Origin: Escherichia coli
GTDB lineage: Bacteria; Pseudomonadota; Gammaproteobacteria; Enterobacterales; Enterobacteriaceae
DNA length: 64,000 nt
Strand: one strand, 5' to 3'
Assembly (NCBI RefSeq): GCF_041248615.1
Contig: NZ_CP158426.1
A program made the position numbers and the translations under genes. Under the pieces are notes generated by a model. The model was given only the letters and a program-made list of their open reading frames with translations, was not told where the DNA came from and searched no databases. Of this stretch, positions 7,677 to 49,423 are shown piece after piece (position 1 is the stretch's first letter; each line of letters begins with the position of its first letter).

Positions 7677-7892
7677 TGTTTAATCCTTTTGGTTTAAACC
7701 AGATGAAGCATCTTACGCTTACGCCAAAAAAGAAAGCAATTAACGGTGTATGACTTTGCAGATAATTGTGACAAAGCTCTCTATTGACGTAATCACAGAC
7801 TTATAAGGGAGATACTCGCATTGGTGTGCGCTCACGACAGGTAAAAAAAAACCTGCCAGCGATGGCAGGTTTTTTATAACTAAAAAACGAAA

Positions 7893-9716
7893 TTAATCGT
7901 CTTTCGGTGCGCGGTTGGCGCGACGACGATCGTTTTCCGTCAGGTGACGTTTACGAATACGGATAGAGGTCGGAGTCACTTCTACCAGTTCGTCATCATC
8001 GATGAACTCCAGAGCTTGTTCCAGAGTCATGCGGATAGGCGGAACCAGAACAACGGCTTCGTCAGTACCGGAAGCACGCATGTTGGTCAGTTTCTTACCG
8101 GTCAGGCAGTTTACAGTCAGGTCGTTAGAGCGGCTATGAATACCGATAATCTGACCTTCGTAAACTTCTGCACCGTGACCGAGGAACAGCTTACCGCGAT
8201 CCTGCAGACCGAACAGCGCGAACGCTACCGCTTTACCCTGACCGTTAGAGATCAGTACGCCGTTCTGACGCTGACCCACTTCACCCGGACGTACGTCGTC
8301 GTAGTGGCTGAAGGTGGAGTACAGCAGACCCGTACCAGAAGTCATGGTCATGAACTCAGAACGGAAGCCAATCAGACCACGGCTTGGGATCACGTAGTCG
8401 AGACGTACGCGGCCTTTACCGTCTGGATTCATGTTTTTCAGGTCGCCTTTACGTTCGCCCAGCGCCTGCATCACAGAACCCTGATGCTGTTCTTCAACGT
8501 CCAGCGTCACGTTTTCATACGGCTCTTGTTTACGACCGTCGATTTCACGGAAGATTACTTTCGGACGGGATACCGCCAGTTCGAAACCTTCACGACGCAT
8601 GTTTTCGATAAGAACAGACAGGTGCAGTTCGCCACGACCAGAAACGCGGAACGCATCGGCGTCTTCGGTTTCTTCTACGCGCAGCGCAACGTTGTGTACC
8701 AGTTCTTTGTTCAGACGATCCAGGATCTGACGAGACGTTACGAACTTACCTTCTTTACCGCAGAACGGCGAGGTGTTAACGCAAAAGAACATAGAAACGG
8801 TCGGCTCATCAACGGAGAGTGCCGGCAGCGCTTCAACGTTTTGCGTGTCGCAAACGGTGTCAGAAATGTTCAGTTCGCCCAGGCCCGTGATCGCCACGAT
8901 ATCGCCAGCTTCCGCCAGATCGGTTTCAATACGTTCCAGACCGAGGTGGCCCAGCACTTTACCGACTTTCGCGTTACGGGTTTTGCCTTCGCTATCGATG
9001 ATAGTGACCTGCTGGTTCGGCTTCACTTTACCGCGCTTGATGCGGCCAATGCCGATAACGCCAACATAGCTGTTGTAATCGAGCTGAGAAATCTGCATCT
9101 GGAACGGACCGTCAAGGTCAACGTCCGGCGCAGGAACGTGGTCAACAATCGCCTGATACAGCGGGGTCATGTCTTCCGCCATATCTTCGTGGTCCAGACC
9201 CGCGATACCGTTCAGCGCAGAAGCGTAAACGATCGGGAAGTCCAGCTGCTCGTCGGTCGCGTCGAGGTTAACGAACAGATCGAATACCTGATCCACAACC
9301 CAATCAGGACGCGCGCCAGGGCGGTCAACTTTGTTGATAACAACAATCGGCTTCAGGCCGTAAGCAAACGCTTTTTTGGTTACGAAGCGCGTTTGCGGCA
9401 TCGGGCCGTCAAATGCGTCAACCACCAGCAGCACTGAGTCTACCATGGACATTACACGTTCAACTTCACCACCGAAGTCGGCGTGCCCCGGGGTATCAAC
9501 GATGTTGATACGGTAATCATTCCATTTGATAGCGGTGTTTTTCGCGAGGATGGTAATCCCACGCTCTTTCTCCAAATCGTTGGAGTCCATCACGCGCTCT
9601 TGGGTTTCGGCACGAGAGTCGAACGTACCGGATTGTTGGAGCAGCTTGTCTACCAGGGTGGTTTTACCATGGTCTACGTGCGCGATGATGGCGATATTAC
9701 GCAATTTTTCGATCAC
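7893..9716 (-). CDS. typA: ribosome-associated translational GTPase BipA/TypA
   Basis: 607-aa ORF; GTPase motifs AHVDHGKTT and DTPGH; EF-G-like architecture. Confidence 0.95.
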
Positions 9717-9867
9717 AACTTTGCCTCAGGCATTAGAAATAGCGCGTTATTGTACACGGATTAATCGCACTACAAAACAGGATCACAAACATCCTCCGCA
9801 AACAAGTATTGCAGAGTCCCTTTGTGATCGCTTTCACGGAGCATAAAAAGGGTTATCCAAAGGTCAT

Positions 9868-9916
9868 TGCACCAATATGGTGCTTAATGTTTCCATTGAA
9901 GCACTATATTGGTGCA
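9868..9916. promoter_or_regulatory. NtrC (NRI) enhancer binding sites upstream of glnA
   Basis: tgcaccaatatggtgc (9868-9883) and gcactatattggtgca (9901-9916) match the TGCACC-N-GGTGCA dyad. Confidence 0.6.
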
Positions 9917-16625: not shown

Positions 16626-16691
16626 AATGGTTCGTCTTTTAGCCGTTTTATTCAGTATAGATTTGCGGCGGAATCTAACAGAAAGCAAGCA

Positions 16692-16936
16692 AAGAAAAAA
16701 GGCGACAGATTACTCTGTCGCCTTTTTTCCTGACTCATAACCCTTAACGGGTCTTACAATCCTTGCAGGCCGCCAACACACCCTGTTTTTCCATTAGCCG
16801 GAACAATCCGTGTTGATTCCATTTCCGTTTAATTACGTCTCCGGACGTTTGTCTTCCTGACAATCCTCTGTCTTCGCCTCCTGGCGCTCCTGACCCTCAT
16901 CCTGAGTCATTGTTCCTGTTAGCGTCCTCGCTCTAT
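16692..16936 (-). ncRNA. csrC: CsrC small RNA (CsrA-sequestering)
   Basis: minus-strand 5' ATAGAGCGAGGACGC at 16936; multiple GGA motifs; terminator hairpin ggcgacagagtaatctgtcgcc plus T-run at 16693-16722; lies between yihI and engB as in K-12. Confidence 0.8.
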
Positions 16937-17963: not shown

Positions 17964-18073
17964 ATAAAAAACGCCCCAGTCATTACTGACTGGGGCGGCT
18001 AAAATATTCAGCCAAATCCGATTACGTGAAGTAAAAGGTCTGAAAGATAGAACATCTTACCTCTGTACCCTAC
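17964..18073 (-). ncRNA. spf: Spot 42 small RNA
   Basis: minus strand reads GTAGGGTACAGAGGTAAGATGTTCTATCTTTCAGACC...; terminator hairpin gccccagtcattactgactggggc plus U-run (17966-17996); immediately downstream of polA. Confidence 0.9.
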
Positions 18074-18220
18074 GCGACTAACTTTACTCTTTTTTGTTCA
18101 GTTCAGAAAGCATTTTTTGTAATTTTTTTTCAGTTGTTGCATAGGAATTTCTAATAGCCATCACAAAACGTGACAGCTTATGTTGCTTACTTACGAAAAA
18201 AGGGCATGTTCAGGCGAATC

Positions 18221-21007
18221 TTAGTGCGCCTGATCCCAGTTTTCGCCACTCCCCACTTCCACCAGCAACGGCACATCCAGACGGGTACAGTTTTCCATCA
18301 GTTGATGAATCTGCTTCGCGACGGCATCGACATCATCTTTATGAACTTCAAATACCAGTTCATCGTGTACCTGCATGATCATACGCACACGCGGTTGCTC
18401 AGCCTGTAGCCACGTATCAACGGCAATCATTGCCCGTTTGATAATGTCGGCGGCGGTTCCCTGCATTGGCGCGTTAATGGCTGCACGTTCAGCCGCTGCA
18501 CGACGAGCACCATTGCTGGATTTGATATCCGGCAGATACAGACGGCGTCCGTCCAGCGTTTCAACGTAGCCCTGCTCTTTCGCCTGAGCACGGGTGCGTT
18601 CCATATACTCCAGCACGCCAGGGTAGCGTTCGAAGTAAAGGTCCATGTACTTCTGCGCTTCTTTACGTGGAATGTTCAATTGCCGCGCCAGACCGAAAGC
18701 ACTCATGCCATAAATCAGACCAAAGTTGATCGCTTTCGCGCTACGGCGTTGCTCGCTGGTGACGGTTTCCAGTGGCAAACCAAACACTTCTGCCGCCGTT
18801 GCCCGGTGGATATCTTTTCCTTCCGCGAATGCGGTCAGCAAGCCTTTGTCACGCGAGAGATGCGCCATAATGCGCAGTTCAATCTGCGAGTAGTCCGCTG
18901 AGACAATCACATAATCCTCTGGCGCAATAAACGCCTGGCGGATACGACGACCTTCTTCGTTACGCACCGGAATGTTTTGCAGGTTAGGATCGGTTGACGA
19001 TAAACGTCCCGTTGCAGTTACTGCCTGGTGATAAGAGGTATGCACACGCCCGGTTTTCGGGTTGATCATCAGCGGCAGCTTGTCGGTGTAAGTCGATTTC
19101 AGCTTCGCCAGACCACGATACTCCAGAATCACTTTTGGCAACGGATAGTCCAGCGCCAGTTCTTCCAGTACCTCTTCCGACGTTGACGGCGCGCCACCTG
19201 GCGTTTTCTTCAGCGGTTTAATGCCCTGTTTTTCAAACAGAATGGTTTGTAACTGCTTGGTGGAAGAAAGGTTAAACTCCTCACCTGCAATTTCATGCGC
19301 TTTCTTTTCCAGCTCAGCCAGACGAAGAGTGAGCTCTTCAGAATGATTGTGCAGCACTTTCGGATCGATCTTCACACCGTTACGTTCAATGCGTGAAAGC
19401 ACCGGCACTAGCGGCATTTCGATATTCTCGAAGACGTTCAACGGCCCTTTGTGTTTTTGCAGATCCGGCCACATTTTCAGATGCAGCTGCAAGGTGACAT
19501 CTGCATCTTCGGCGGCGTAACGTCCGGCCTCTTCCAGGGCAATCTGGTTAAAGGTCAGTTGATTTTTACCTTTACCAGCAATCTCTTCAAAAGTGATGGT
19601 TTTGTGCTTCAACCAACGTTCCGCGAGGCTGTCCATATCGTGACGCCCGGCAACGCTATTGAGAATGTAGGACTCCAGCATGGTATCAAATGCAATCCCA
19701 CGCAGCTCAATGCCGTAATTCGCCAGAATACCGCGATCGTATTTCAGGTTTTGCCCAACCTTCAGCGCCTTTTCATCTTCCAGCAGCGGTTTTAGCAACT
19801 CGAGTGCACGCTCGCGAGAGATTTGATCGGGCGCATCAAGATAATCATGAGCAACCGGAATATATGCCGCTACGCCTGGCTCGATAGCAAAAGAAAGCCC
19901 GACCAGGTTAGCAGAGATGTTATCAAGGCTGTCGGTTTCGGTATCAAATGCAAATACCGGCGCTTTTTCCAGCTTCGCAATCCACGCTTTCAGTGTTTCT
20001 TCATCAAGGATGGTGACGTAGTTGTCATAAGAAATCACCGTTGCCGTCACCTCTGGCGCTTCGTCTGCAACACTGGTTTCCTGCGGCCTGGCTGCGGGTT
20101 TCGCCCCTTTAGCCTGTAACCATTTGCCCGCTTCGACATCAGCAGTCCAGCGTTTGAACTCATACTTTTTGAACAGCCCCAACAACTCTTCCGCCGCCGG
20201 TTGTTGCACTTCCAGTTGTTCACAGGTCAGCTCCAGTTCAACGTCGGTTTTAATCGTCGCCAGCTGGTATGAGAGATAAGCAACTTCTTTGTTTTGCTCG
20301 AGCTTCGCTGCCATTGTTTTCGCGCCACGGAAGCTCAACCCAGCAATTTTTTCTGGCTCGGCATATAGCGTATCCAGCCCGCCAAGACCTTGCAGCAATG
20401 CCTGCGCGGTTTTTTCACCGACGCCCGGTACGCCAGGGATGTTATCAGAGGAGTCACCCATCAGCGCCAGGAAGTCGATGATCAGTTCTGGCGGCACGCC
20501 GTACTTATTCACCACCTCTTCCGGGCCGAGGATGGTATTCGTCATGGTATTGATAAGCGTAATATTTGGCGTCACCAGCTGCGCCATATCTTTATCGCCA
20601 GTGCTGATCAGCACCGGACGCCCGGCTTTTTCGGCTTCCCGCGCCAGAGTACCGATAACGTCGTCCGCTTCTACGCCAGAAACCGCCAGCAGCGGCAGTC
20701 CCATCGCTTTAACCATCGCGTGTAAAGGTTCGATTTGTGCTCGCAGATCGTCCGGCATTGGCGGGCGATGTGATTTGTAATGTTCAAACAGTTCATCACG
20801 AAAGGTTTTTCCCTTGGCGTCAAATACCACCGCTGCATGCGTCGGTTTATATTGCATGATCAGACTGCGCAGCATGTTGAGGACACCATACATCGCACCG
20901 GTCGGCTCGCCTGCGCTGTTAGTCAGCGGGGGAAACGCGTGATATGCGCGATAAAGATAAGATGAACCATCTACAAGGATAAGTGGATTTTGGGGGATCT
21001 GAACCAT
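18221..21007 (-). CDS. polA: DNA polymerase I
   Basis: 928-aa ORF starting [25 protein letters not shown]; ends ...GENWDQAH. Confidence 0.97.
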
Positions 21008-21130
21008 AATGTCCGTGCCTGTTTATCAGATTATGGGTAAAGGATGCCACAGACAGGATGAAAACATGAGTTTTTCACCGCTTTTCGTGAAAATCTTTTG
21101 TAGATCTTCTGGATCGCTCGCAAATCGTCA

Positions 21131-21139
21131 TGTGGATAA
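21131..21139. promoter_or_regulatory. DnaA box in the polA / yihG divergent promoter region
   Basis: tgtggataa is the reverse complement of TTATCCACA; a second 8/9 match tgtggatag at 21272-21280. Confidence 0.5.
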
Positions 21140-21370
21140 CTTTGTGCATAAATTATTTACATCGCTTTTAATTTATTATCATGCTTTTTACAGCATGATG
21201 TTTGTCTTTGTTTTTCATGAAGTTAAAAATAAGACCATCCCTAATAATTGAGATAATGGGATTTTTTCTAATGTGGATAGATATGAATTATTTTTCTCCT
21301 TAAGGATCATCCGTTATTTGGGTCGTTTTCTGCTAAAATCTGCGCCTTGCGCTTCTTTAGCGCACTGTCT

Positions 21371-22303
21371 ATGGCTAACTTTTTGAATAAATTCATTATG
21401 ACGAGAATACTCGCTGCGATAACCCTTTTGCTGAGTATCGTATTGACCATTTTGGTCACTATTTTTTGCTCCGTCCCGATCATCATTGCCGGGATTGTAA
21501 AACTATTGCTTCCTGTGCCAGTCATTTGGCGAAAGGTTTCGCGTTTTTGTGATTTTATGATGTATTGCTGGTGCGAAGGTCTGGCGGTATTACTGCATCT
21601 GAACCCACACCTGCAATGGGAAGTTCACGGGCTGGAAGGGTTAAGTAAGAAGAACTGGTATCTGCTTATTTGTAACCACCGTAGTTGGGCAGATATTGTC
21701 GTACTGTGCGTGCTGTTTCGTAAGCACATTCCGATGAATAAATATTTCCTCAAGCAGCAGCTGGCCTGGGTGCCTTTTCTTGGCCTGGCATGCTGGGCGC
21801 TGGATATGCCGTTTATGAAGCGTTATTCCCGCGCTTATTTATTACGTCATCCGGAGCGACGTGGTAAAGATGTTGAAACCACTCGGCGTTCTTGTGAAAA
21901 GTTTCGCCTGCATCCCACCACCATTGTCAATTTCGTTGAAGGCTCCCGTTTCACGCAAGAAAAACATCAGCAAACCCACTCCACTTTTCAAAACTTGTTG
22001 CCACCAAAGGCGGCAGGCATTGCGATGGCGCTAAATGTACTGGGTAAACAATTCGATAAACTGCTTAATGTTACGCTGTGTTATCCGGACAATAACCGTC
22101 AGCCGTTCTTCGATATGTTAAGCGGTAAACTGACGCGGATTGTCGTACATGTGGATTTGCAGCCTATTTCCGATGAGTTACATGGCGACTACATCAATGA
22201 CAAAAGCTTTAAGCGCCATTTTCAGCAATGGCTGAACTCACTGTGGCAGGAAAAAGACCGACTTCTGACGTCGTTGATGTCATCACAGCGTCAGAATAAG
22301 TAA
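21371..22303 (+). CDS. yihG: PlsC-family acyltransferase (lysophospholipid acyltransferase)
   Basis: ORF track 21347..22303; ATG at 21371 gives [14 protein letters not shown]; NHRSWAD acyltransferase motif. Confidence 0.85.
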
Positions 22304-22343
22304 GTTTTACTCGCCTCTGAATGAGCAGAGGCGAGTGAGTATT

Positions 22344-23774
22344 TTAATGAACAATACGTCCGGCACGAGACATAAATTCTTCTTCGCTCATCTCCTGTCC
22401 GTTAAAAACAACTTTACCCGGTGTATAACGCAGTTGCAGCGAGGCGGTATTGTTGTCAATCGTGATTAACTGAAACATCTGACCTAAGGTCATCATCCCG
22501 CTGATTTGTTTATCAGCCTGCTTTTGCGCTTTTTCCGCATCCATTCCTTCAGATAAATTAAGCTGTTTTGCGATTTCTGTGGCGACATTAAGCGGTAATT
22601 TCACATCAAAATTGAGCGATTTAATATCTTTGTTTGTGGATGATGAAGATTTGGCTGGGTCGGCAATACTGATATCCAGATTGGCATTTAGTTCGCCGAG
22701 TGCATTCTTCCATCTTACCGGTTGTTTAATGGTCGGCTCACTTTTTTGTAATAACGGTAAATACTCTTTGAACAATGCAGTATTCACTTCTTGCAGAGCA
22801 ACTTCATCGTTTGCTAACTCAGGGTGTGCAGCAAGCTGCTTCTGCATCGCAATGTTATACTGGATGATAAATTGGCGCACCGCTGAGGGATCAATAGATT
22901 CAGCAATCAATGACCACTCACCACTACCGAGTTGCTGATTCCCTTTTGTTAACTTATCAAGTTCGTAGGTCAGATTGACATTGATATAATCTTTGTCTTT
23001 AACGCGATCCAGCCTGGTTTTTGCAACGAAAGCATCGATTTGGGCAACGTCTTCCCCGTGATTGATAATGTTAATCTGATTAAATTTCGACTCGCTTTCA
23101 CCAACCGGAAATTTCTTTTCTTCTAATCGCGCCAGAGAATCAATGGTAAAACTTTTCGCCGTTACTGTGTTCATTGGTGATAATTGCAGAACAATATCTT
23201 CGACTTTGCCTTCAATATCCAGGTTAGACAATGAACTACCATCACCATTAAAAGTAAACTGGCCCTCACCAAAAGAAAACTTTCCATACTCTGCAGGGGC
23301 AACATCTAATGTCGTAGAGAATGAGCCACCAAACGCGAATCGCAATGTCGCTTCCACGGGCGATTTATTTTTCGCGGCGATAAATAGCAGTTGTGTCAGT
23401 TCATTATTCACTAAGTTCACTTTTGCCGCTGCCAGTGCTGGGATGACATTACCACGCATTAACATTGTGATGGGCAACGGACCGTGCTCAACATCCACAT
23501 CAAATGCAACTTTCTGGCCTGGCTTGATATTGAGATCGGGTGCACCGTTATCGAATGTCATTTGCATTTGAAAACGGGAATTAAAAAAGCCTTTGTCAAA
23601 ATTTTGATAACTTAACGTCATATCGTAGGCATGTTCACCTTTCTTTTTAGCATCGTTAAAATCTTTAATAAATTTTTCGACACCAGGCTGAATTTGCGTA
23701 CCTGTGTACCATGTGCCACCACCCCAGATTACGGCTAACGCAACAATAACACCTGTAGCTGACTTACGTATCAT
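22344..23774 (-). CDS. yihF: DUF945-family protein YihF
   Basis: ORF track 22344..23816; ATG (cat 23772-23774) gives MIRKSATGVIVALAVIWGG. Confidence 0.8.
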   Translation of the reverse strand: MIRKSATGVIVALAVIWGGGTWYTGTQIQPGVEKFIKDFNDAKKKGEHAYDMTLSYQNFDKGFFNSRFQMQMTFDNGAPDLNIKPGQKVAFDVDVEHGPLPITMLMRGNVIPALAAAKVNLVNNELTQLLFIAAKNKSPVEATLRFAFGGSFSTTLDVAPAEYGKFSFGEGQFTFNGDGSSLSNLDIEGKVEDIVLQLSPMNTVTAKSFTIDSLARLEEKKFPVGESESKFNQINIINHGEDVAQIDAFVAKTRLDRVKDKDYINVNLTYELDKLTKGNQQLGSGEWSLIAESIDPSAVRQFIIQYNIAMQKQLAAHPELANDEVALQEVNTALFKEYLPLLQKSEPTIKQPVRWKNALGELNANLDISIADPAKSSSSTNKDIKSLNFDVKLPLNVATEIAKQLNLSEGMDAEKAQKQADKQISGMMTLGQMFQLITIDNNTASLQLRYTPGKVVFNGQEMSEEEFMSRAGRIVH

Positions 23775-23881
23775 ATAAATATTCCCTGATAAAACAGCAA
23801 AACTTTGAATATCCACTTATGCTGAAATAATGTCCAGCGGCAGGATGCATTATCAGAATGTATTTATATTTATTAAATAAT

Positions 23882-28601: not shown

Positions 28602-28721
28602 ATGCCTGGCAGTTCCCTACTCTCGCATGGGGAGACCCCACACTACCATCGGCGCTACGGCGTTTCACTTCTGAGTTCGGCATGGGGTCAGGTGGGACCA
28701 CCGCGCTAAGGCCGCCAGGCA
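28602..28721 (-). rRNA. rrfA: 5S ribosomal RNA
   Basis: reverse complement reads TGCCTGGCGGCC...GGGAACTGCCAGGCAT, 120 nt. Confidence 0.97.
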
Positions 28722-28814
28722 AATTCTGTTTTATCAGACCGCTTCTGCGTTCTGATTTAATCTGTATCAGGCTGAAAATCTTTCTCTCATCCGCCAAAAC
28801 ATCTTCGGCGTTGT

Positions 28815-31729
<2,915 letters not shown>

Positions 31730-31902
31730 AAGATGTTTCTTTCGATTCATCATCGTGTTGCGAAAATTTGAGAGACTCACGAACAACTTTCATTGTTCAG
31801 TGTTTCAATTTTCAGCTTGATCCAGATTTTTAAAGAGCAAAACTTCGCAGTGAACCTTTGCAGGTACACTCTGAAGTATTTTTTATTTAATCACTACAGA
31901 GA

Positions 31903-31978
31903 TGGTGGAGCTATGCGGGATCGAACCGCAGACCTCCTGCGTGCAAAGCAGGCGCTCTCCCAGCTGAGCTATAGCCCC
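31903..31978 (-). tRNA. alaT: tRNA-Ala (UGC), rrn spacer tRNA
   Basis: reverse complement GGGGCTATAGCTCAGCTGGGAGAGCGCCTGCTTTGCACGCAGGAGGTCTGCGGTTCGATCCCGCATAGCTCCACCA. Confidence 0.97.
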
Positions 31979-32020
31979 ATAACATGTAGTTAAAACCTCT
32001 TCAAATTTGCGGTGCAAATT

Positions 32021-32097
<77 letters not shown>

Positions 32098-32165
32098 GTA
32101 GAGGTTTTACTGCTCATTTTCATCAGACAATCTGTGTGAGCACTGCAAAGAACGCTTCTTTAAGG

Positions 32166-33707
<1,542 letters not shown>

Positions 33708-47180: not shown

Positions 47181-49423
<2,243 letters not shown>

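Follow-up and report, generated by a model that had tools for sequence, protein, structure and literature searches.

A double DnaA box and a distal DnaA box at conserved spacing in the polA upstream region of Escherichia coli and related gammaproteobacteria

DnaA binding in E. coli K-12 has been mapped by ChIP-seq to 16 bound regions (PMC11317965). Solitary DnaA boxes are mostly unbound in vivo, and only 13 of the 32 perfect boxes in the genome are bound; at purH, binding needs both half-sites of a double box and a spacing of 2-3 bp between them (PMC11317965). One of the strongest E. coli peaks lies at polA (MG1655 4046831, 123-fold coverage) on the double DnaA box tTTATGCACAaagTTATCCACAt (PMC11317965), and the occupancy of this double box by DnaA in K-12 in vivo is thereby established. 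DnaA is also known to activate or stimulate polA, in stationary phase according to reviews (Quinones et al. 1997, as cited). Since the proteins of the DnaA regulon, including that of polA, remained largely as abundant as in the wild type in strains deleted for datA, DARS1 and DARS2, the amplitude of this regulation may be small. The core finding, namely DnaA binding and control at polA, is thus already known at textbook level. A full-text literature search for DnaA at the polA promoter gave no match.

A double DnaA box upstream of a replication or nucleotide-metabolism gene is a feature that polA shares with nrdA, mioC, dnaA and purH. At dnaA and mioC, as at polA, GATC sites are found near the double boxes. 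A more extended layout, by our measurements, characterizes datA, where TTATCCACA, with a weak partner 3 bp upstream, is followed by the IBS TATCAATAGGTTA, on the opposite strand and 65 bp further, and then by TTATTCACA in the same orientation as the first box, with 162 bp start-to-start. Here, we compare the polA upstream region of an E. coli chromosome with these loci and with its counterparts in other gammaproteobacteria.

The region is the 363-bp polA/yihG intergenic gap (21008-21370; Table 1) in a stretch of 64,000 nucleotides, which we call the window and to which all positions refer unless MG1655 is named. The annotated ATG of yihG lies 24 nt inside a TTG-started open reading frame (ORF) of the ORF list. 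The gap is collinear with MG1655 4046603-4046965, with four substitutions over 401 aligned bases, all of them outside the boxes; a window position w converts to the MG1655 position x = 4046966 - (w - 21007). The 601 bases around the boxes have a counterpart in 5425 of the 5426 complete E. coli genomes, where the annotation reads "yihG: acyltransferase" and "polA: DNA polymerase I", and the identity over these 601 bp is at least 99% in only 3963 of the 5426. In 5401 of these genomes, the 41 nt surrounding the distal box show no difference, and the same is true of the 41 nt around the double box in 5386. On the MG1655 map, the window lies ~80-140 kb from oriC.

Table 1. Features of the polA/yihG region in window coordinates.
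Feature	Position	Strand	Description
polA (DNA polymerase I, 928 aa)	18221-21007	-	CDS; gene regulated by the box module
TGGCATCCT	21041-21049	-	Conserved; 42 nt upstream of polA ATG; putative extended -10 (TG-G-CATCCT)
GATC (Dam) pair	21103-21106 and 21112-21115		9 bp apart, between double box and polA promoter; first inside AGATCT (21102-21107)
Perfect DnaA box TTATCCACA (plus strand TGTGGATAA)	21131-21139	-	9/9; downstream half of double box; 132-124 nt upstream of polA ATG
Partner DnaA box TTATGCACA	21143-21151	-	8/9; 3 bp (AAG) upstream of perfect box
IHF-consensus-like site TTTCATGAAGTTA	21213-21225	+ (opposite to boxes)	7/9 specified positions of WATCAANNNNTTR; starts 55 nt after first base of distal box
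Distal solitary DnaA box CTATCCACA (plus strand TGTGGATAG)	21272-21280	-	8/9; 141 bp start-to-start upstream of perfect box, same orientation
yihG (acyltransferase, 310 aa)	21371-22303	+	CDS; divergent neighbour of polA

The gap contains three DnaA boxes, all of which read 5'-3' on the sense strand of polA. The two that lie closest to the gene, TTATGCACA-AAG-TTATCCACA, agree with the published definition of a double box as two boxes in the same orientation and 2-3 bp apart (PMC11317965), and window 21130-21152, when reverse-complemented, gives the reported sequence tTTATGCACAaagTTATCCACAt. The ChIP-seq peak at MG1655 4046831 converts to window position 21142, the centre of this double box (21131-21151). 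The footnote to Table 1 of that study names NC_000913.2, and the value 4046831 fits the double box only in the numbering of NC_000913.3, where polA starts at 4046966 (PMC11317965). As far as citations convey the earlier work, the polA DnaA box of Quinones et al. 1997 and the ChIP-seq double box correspond to the same locus and the same sequence as our proximal pair, with no difference.

A first-pass annotation of this DNA had located the perfect box and the distal box exactly, with 9/9 and 8/9 matches, and had suggested that DnaA modulates polA expression, with ChIP as a check. The suggestion had been anticipated in print (Quinones et al. 1997, via review, and the 123-fold peak on the double box), and the published peak provides the occupancy data it called for. 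However, that annotation paired the perfect box with the distal box and missed the box at 21143-21151; the functionally important partner of the perfect box is this adjacent box, with which the ChIP-seq study pairs it, and not the distal one. For the polA region, the ChIP-seq study lists one peak, centred on the double box; the listing does not resolve the distal box, 135 bp away, for which it gives no signal of its own (PMC11317965).

Finding one perfect box in 64 kb would not be surprising (0.49 expected; at least one in 41 of 100 shuffles), and its non-chance nature rests on its conservation and its published ChIP-seq occupancy. The window as a whole contains 27 boxes with at most one mismatch to TTATCCACA, compared with 12.5 expected and a number not reached in any of 100 shuffles, in line with published reports that DnaA boxes are enriched near oriC. 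At this density, three such boxes in one orientation within 363 bp have a Poisson probability of ~5e-4. The partner box fits the relaxed consensus TTWTNCACA, which the distal box fails at position 1 (C).

For the comparative analysis, the 700 nt upstream of polA were aligned from 80 gammaproteobacterial loci and scanned for boxes. A perfect box is present in 36 of the 80, distributed over three orders (Enterobacterales, Vibrionaceae and Alteromonadales): it was found in all 13 named Enterobacterales genera or species sampled and in all six Vibrionaceae, as well as in Shewanella, Pseudoalteromonas, Idiomarina-type genomes, Rheinheimera, Bowmanella, Lacimicrobium and one of two Psychromonas MAGs. 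Among the 80 loci, no perfect box was found upstream of polA in Pasteurellaceae, Pseudomonas, Halomonas or Cellvibrio-type genomes. The partner box is kept across the three orders, in at least 30 taxa, in the form nTAnnCACA with an AAG, GAG or GAC spacer. Together with the window, the box-bearing loci give 37 sequences, 32 of which also contain a distal box that follows the pattern nTnTCCACA, always in the orientation of the perfect box. The start-to-start distance between the two is 141-143 bp in 21 taxa, including all 14 Enterobacterales (the window among them) and five of six Vibrionaceae, the sixth (Salinivibrio) having too short an upstream sequence; in 11 further taxa it is 127-148 bp. 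No conserved partner box accompanies the distal box in the aligned box-bearing loci.

The distal box occurs in several lineage-specific variants: CTATCCACA in Escherichia and Citrobacter, ATATCCACA in other Enterobacterales, TTTTCCACA or TTGTCCACA in Vibrionaceae, the perfect sequence TTATCCACA in Bowmanella and Lacimicrobium, and AAATCCACA, at 144 bp, in one Shewanella and one Parashewanella genome. The 9-mers CTATCCACA and ATATCCACA are also found in the known DnaA loci DARS2 and datA, with CTATCCACA in the DARS2 double box; our designed mutant form of CTATCCACA is CTATGGTGA. Among 16 genus-level representatives, the mean pairwise identity is 1.00 for the perfect box, 0.71 for the partner box with its spacer (against ~0.32 in the flanks) and 0.88 for the distal box (against ~0.30), with spacers and flanks overall at 0.30-0.34. 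These comparisons demonstrate, at the level of sequence, that the three-box layout is under selection and tied to polA. The first-pass annotation had named poor conservation in close relatives as grounds for giving up its proposal; the boxes are instead retained across Enterobacterales, Vibrionaceae and Alteromonadales.

The spacer between the distal and perfect boxes is 58-80% A+T and unconserved, apart from one short site that resembles the IHF consensus. At an offset of 55-56 nt from the start of the distal box, and consistently on the strand opposite to the boxes, this site has no more than one mismatch in nine of 32 taxa and at most two in 16 of 32, all within one 3-nt bin; neither count was reached in any of 500 shuffles, which ignore the shared ancestry of the taxa. 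The match is perfect in one Enterobacter-type genome, two Photorhabdus, Providencia, Acerihabitans, Aliivibrio and Enterovibrio; Escherichia and Citrobacter carry the two-mismatch form TTTCAKNNNNTTA. The information content peaks here as TAA....TGA. The E. coli copy alone is not significant, as the AT-rich gap contains several equally good two-mismatch matches, and Kasho 2021 gave no match for polA or yihG. We therefore treat IHF binding at the E. coli site as a working hypothesis. A hairpin is also present between the boxes (21177-21210, plus strand), with a 9-bp stem (ATCATGCT / AGCATGAT) followed by a T-rich run. Reading it as a terminator or as the end of a small RNA was rejected, as E. 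albertii has a disrupted stem, Citrobacter has none and no Rfam family matches; the hairpin is probably fortuitous.

On the polA side of the double box, the most prominent conserved element is TGGCATCCT. In the form TGGCATnCT, it occurs in 34 taxa (33 loci and the window), 36-70 nt from the start of the polA match; all of them have a perfect box, so that the element is present in 34 of the 37 box-bearing sequences. Lineages that lack it carry TATAAT-like hexamers at the same place. We infer that TGGCATCCT is a candidate extended -10 of the polA promoter. A simple sigma-70 scan of the gap found no promoter, and sigma-54, sigma-32 and LexA readings of the element do not fit, as judged by eye. 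In five Alteromonadales loci (L020, L024, L027, L028 and L031), a second motif, TGGCTGA, lies 13-14 nt upstream of TGGCATnCT, where E. coli has TCATGT.

The distances between the perfect box and TGGCATnCT fall at 47-52, 58-61, 69-72, 82, 88-92 and 137 bp, with a best period of ~10.9 bp (Rayleigh p ~0.006-0.02, 15 distinct values). This suggests, and does not prove, that the helical phase between the box and the -10-like element is preserved. Between the two, E. albertii, three Enterobacter-type genomes and Superficieibacter share the GATC pair, at +24/25 and +33/34 relative to the perfect box, whereas Vibrionaceae have their GATC pair after the distal box. The AGATCT hexamer that contains the first of these sites was considered as an ATP-DnaA 6-mer and set aside: because relatives keep only its GATC core, a Dam/SeqA role seems more likely than a conserved 6-mer box.

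Several of these features recall datA. Both loci have same-orientation boxes that flank an opposite-strand site matching or resembling the IHF consensus, over ~150 bp; at both, a perfect box has a weak partner 3 bp upstream, and both are located near oriC and strongly bound by DnaA. However, the double box lies downstream of the bend site at polA and upstream of it at datA, the polA IHF-like site of E. coli is degenerate (two mismatches) whereas the datA IBS is perfect, and the polA module abuts a promoter. By analogy, the likeness may thus indicate a possible way of working rather than membership of the datA/DARS family. At purH (L082, MG1655 4207742-4207762, ChIP coverage ~124-fold), the double box TTACGCACA-gag-TTATCCACA is preceded at 135 bp by nothing better than a two-mismatch box, TGATTCACA, lacks any IHF match with fewer than two mismatches, and is not convincing as a second case of the three-part layout. 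Since purH is without them, a distal box and a bend site are not general to double-box sites. The DnaA literature consulted here, in which Quinones et al. 1997 is represented through citations only, mentions neither the distal box nor its fixed spacing, and neither the IHF-like site in mid-spacer nor the conservation across orders.

Taken together, the 363-bp gap is best explained as the polA upstream control region with a three-box DnaA-binding module, in which the distal box is an auxiliary site acting across a bend and not a yihG operator; for this reading as a whole, we estimate a probability of about 0.7. Bound to the double box some 90 bp upstream of the -10-like element, DnaA would modulate polA transcription in a manner that probably depends on the helix face. 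The distal box would be expected to bind DnaA poorly on its own. A bend at the IHF-like site of the AT-rich spacer, with its centre ~57 bp away from the distal box and ~84 bp away from the perfect one, could bring the distal box beside the double box and stabilise a higher-order DnaA complex, and we infer that the DnaA complex at polA may accordingly be bent or looped. Through the same complex, the locus would rank among the strongest DnaA sinks near oriC. To the known core, this adds a modest extension, namely a distal box at a conserved, fixed distance and a bend-like site. If functional, these two elements could help explain why polA, once oriC, datA and DARS2 are set aside, ranks with the sites most heavily occupied by DnaA, and long-range DnaA-DnaA cooperation at a promoter could be studied in them as a simple and conserved system. 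A strong role is argued against by the single listed ChIP peak, the tendency of solitary boxes to be unbound, the departure of the distal box from TTWTNCACA, the weakness of the E. coli IHF-like site and the largely unaltered protein levels of the DnaA regulon in the datA/DARS deletion strains. A more far-reaching version, which we consider doubtful, is that the polA region forms a conserved looped DnaA module (solitary box, IHF-type bend and double box over ~142 bp) like datA, DARS2 and the left half of oriC, and represents either an unrecognised polA activation complex or a fourth DnaA-buffering or DnaA-modulating locus.

The module could also be mainly a chromosomal DnaA-handling locus, either a titration sink or a datA/DARS-like nucleotide-state site, with the adjacency to polA being secondary. 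The 123-fold ChIP coverage speaks for this, as it is far above that of promoter sites (dnaA 5, nrdA 14, mioC 25) and approaches that of DARS2, datA and oriC (78-218), and so do the succession of box, opposite-strand IHF-like site and box over ~141 bp that mirrors datA (162 bp), the conserved GATC sites and the location in the oriC-proximal zone of high box density. On the other hand, the boxes co-occur with TGGCATnCT and are apparently phased with it on the helix, which argues for a transcriptional role; genetic work is not known to have revealed a fourth locus of this kind, and the E. coli IHF-like site is weak. On balance, we consider a primary role in DnaA handling unlikely.

Divergent yihG is found upstream of polA only in Escherichia, Citrobacter and some Enterobacter- and Klebsiella-type genomes. 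The polA control region directly follows dsbA in Providencia, Photorhabdus, Acerihabitans and one Enterobacter-type genome, and Superficieibacter has yihF and no divergent yihG; both yihF and yihG intervene between dsbA and polA (window 21371-23816) only in some Enterobacteriaceae.

The first-pass annotation had proposed that the distal box could couple yihG to DnaA, which would make it a separate operator of the divergent yihG promoter and link the acyltransferase to the DnaA signal. In E. coli, the position of the box would allow this, as it is found 91-99 nt ahead of the yihG ATG, ~70 nt before what could be a yihG extended -10 (TGCTAAAAT, 21331-21339), and the start of the gene overlaps with TTATTCAAA-aag-TTAGCCATA, a degenerate double box. 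However, the upstream gene is a co-oriented dsbA in four box-bearing loci (L009, L012, L013 and L014) and a yihF homologue in a fifth (L006), and the distal box lies at 142 bp in all five; all three boxes persist in several genomes without yihG at this place. Among the genera that do have yihG, the distance from the box to the yihG start drifts from ~90 to 139 bp while that to the polA box stays at 141-142 bp. Because the spacing to the polA box is fixed whatever gene lies upstream, the distal box belongs to the polA module, and the comparison lends no support to coupling with yihG. We also found no report of DnaA control of yihG, with zero mentions of the gene in the DnaA ChIP-seq and titration papers. 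A yihG operator is thus quite improbable and yihG probably lies outside the DnaA-box module, although in E. coli the distal box could conceivably have a side effect on yihG. As for the degenerate double box, it is found on the minus strand of the first yihG codons (21370-21390), with two 7/9 matches that have the AAG spacer and the orientation of the real double box; it belongs to a direct repeat of 27 nt shared with 21133-21159 (81%) and is not kept in Enterobacter-type yihG. It may reflect chance or coding constraint.

The simpler gene order, in which the distal box lies between a co-oriented dsbA and polA, raises the alternative that the box serves as a DnaA roadblock or insulator against read-through into polA from co-oriented dsbA and yihF. 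DnaA roadblock termination is known from the literature, but this function would leave both the fixed 141-143 bp spacing and the conserved mid-spacer motif unexplained, and the box is unchanged in E. coli, where the neighbouring yihG is divergent; we regard it as very unlikely. That the distal box is a functionless chance 8/9 match can practically be dismissed: the window does contain 27 one-mismatch boxes and no separate ChIP peak is listed for this one, but its identity of 0.88 in a background of 0.30 extends over three orders at fixed spacing, and a pattern match within a 26-nt window, expected in ~0.3% of loci, is seen in 32 of 37.

An 80-aa ORF with an ATG start runs antisense through the polA control region (21009-21251, plus strand), over spacer sequence that is not conserved, and can almost certainly be discounted as a gene. 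At the Rfam gathering threshold, no match falls within the polA-yihG gap; elsewhere in the window, the matches comprise STnc370, ES222, CsrC, Spot 42, a complete rrn operon with two tRNAs and the Erse sRNA, at 7840-7908, 9798-9905, 16683-16936, 17965-18083, 28604-33707 and 48818-49069.
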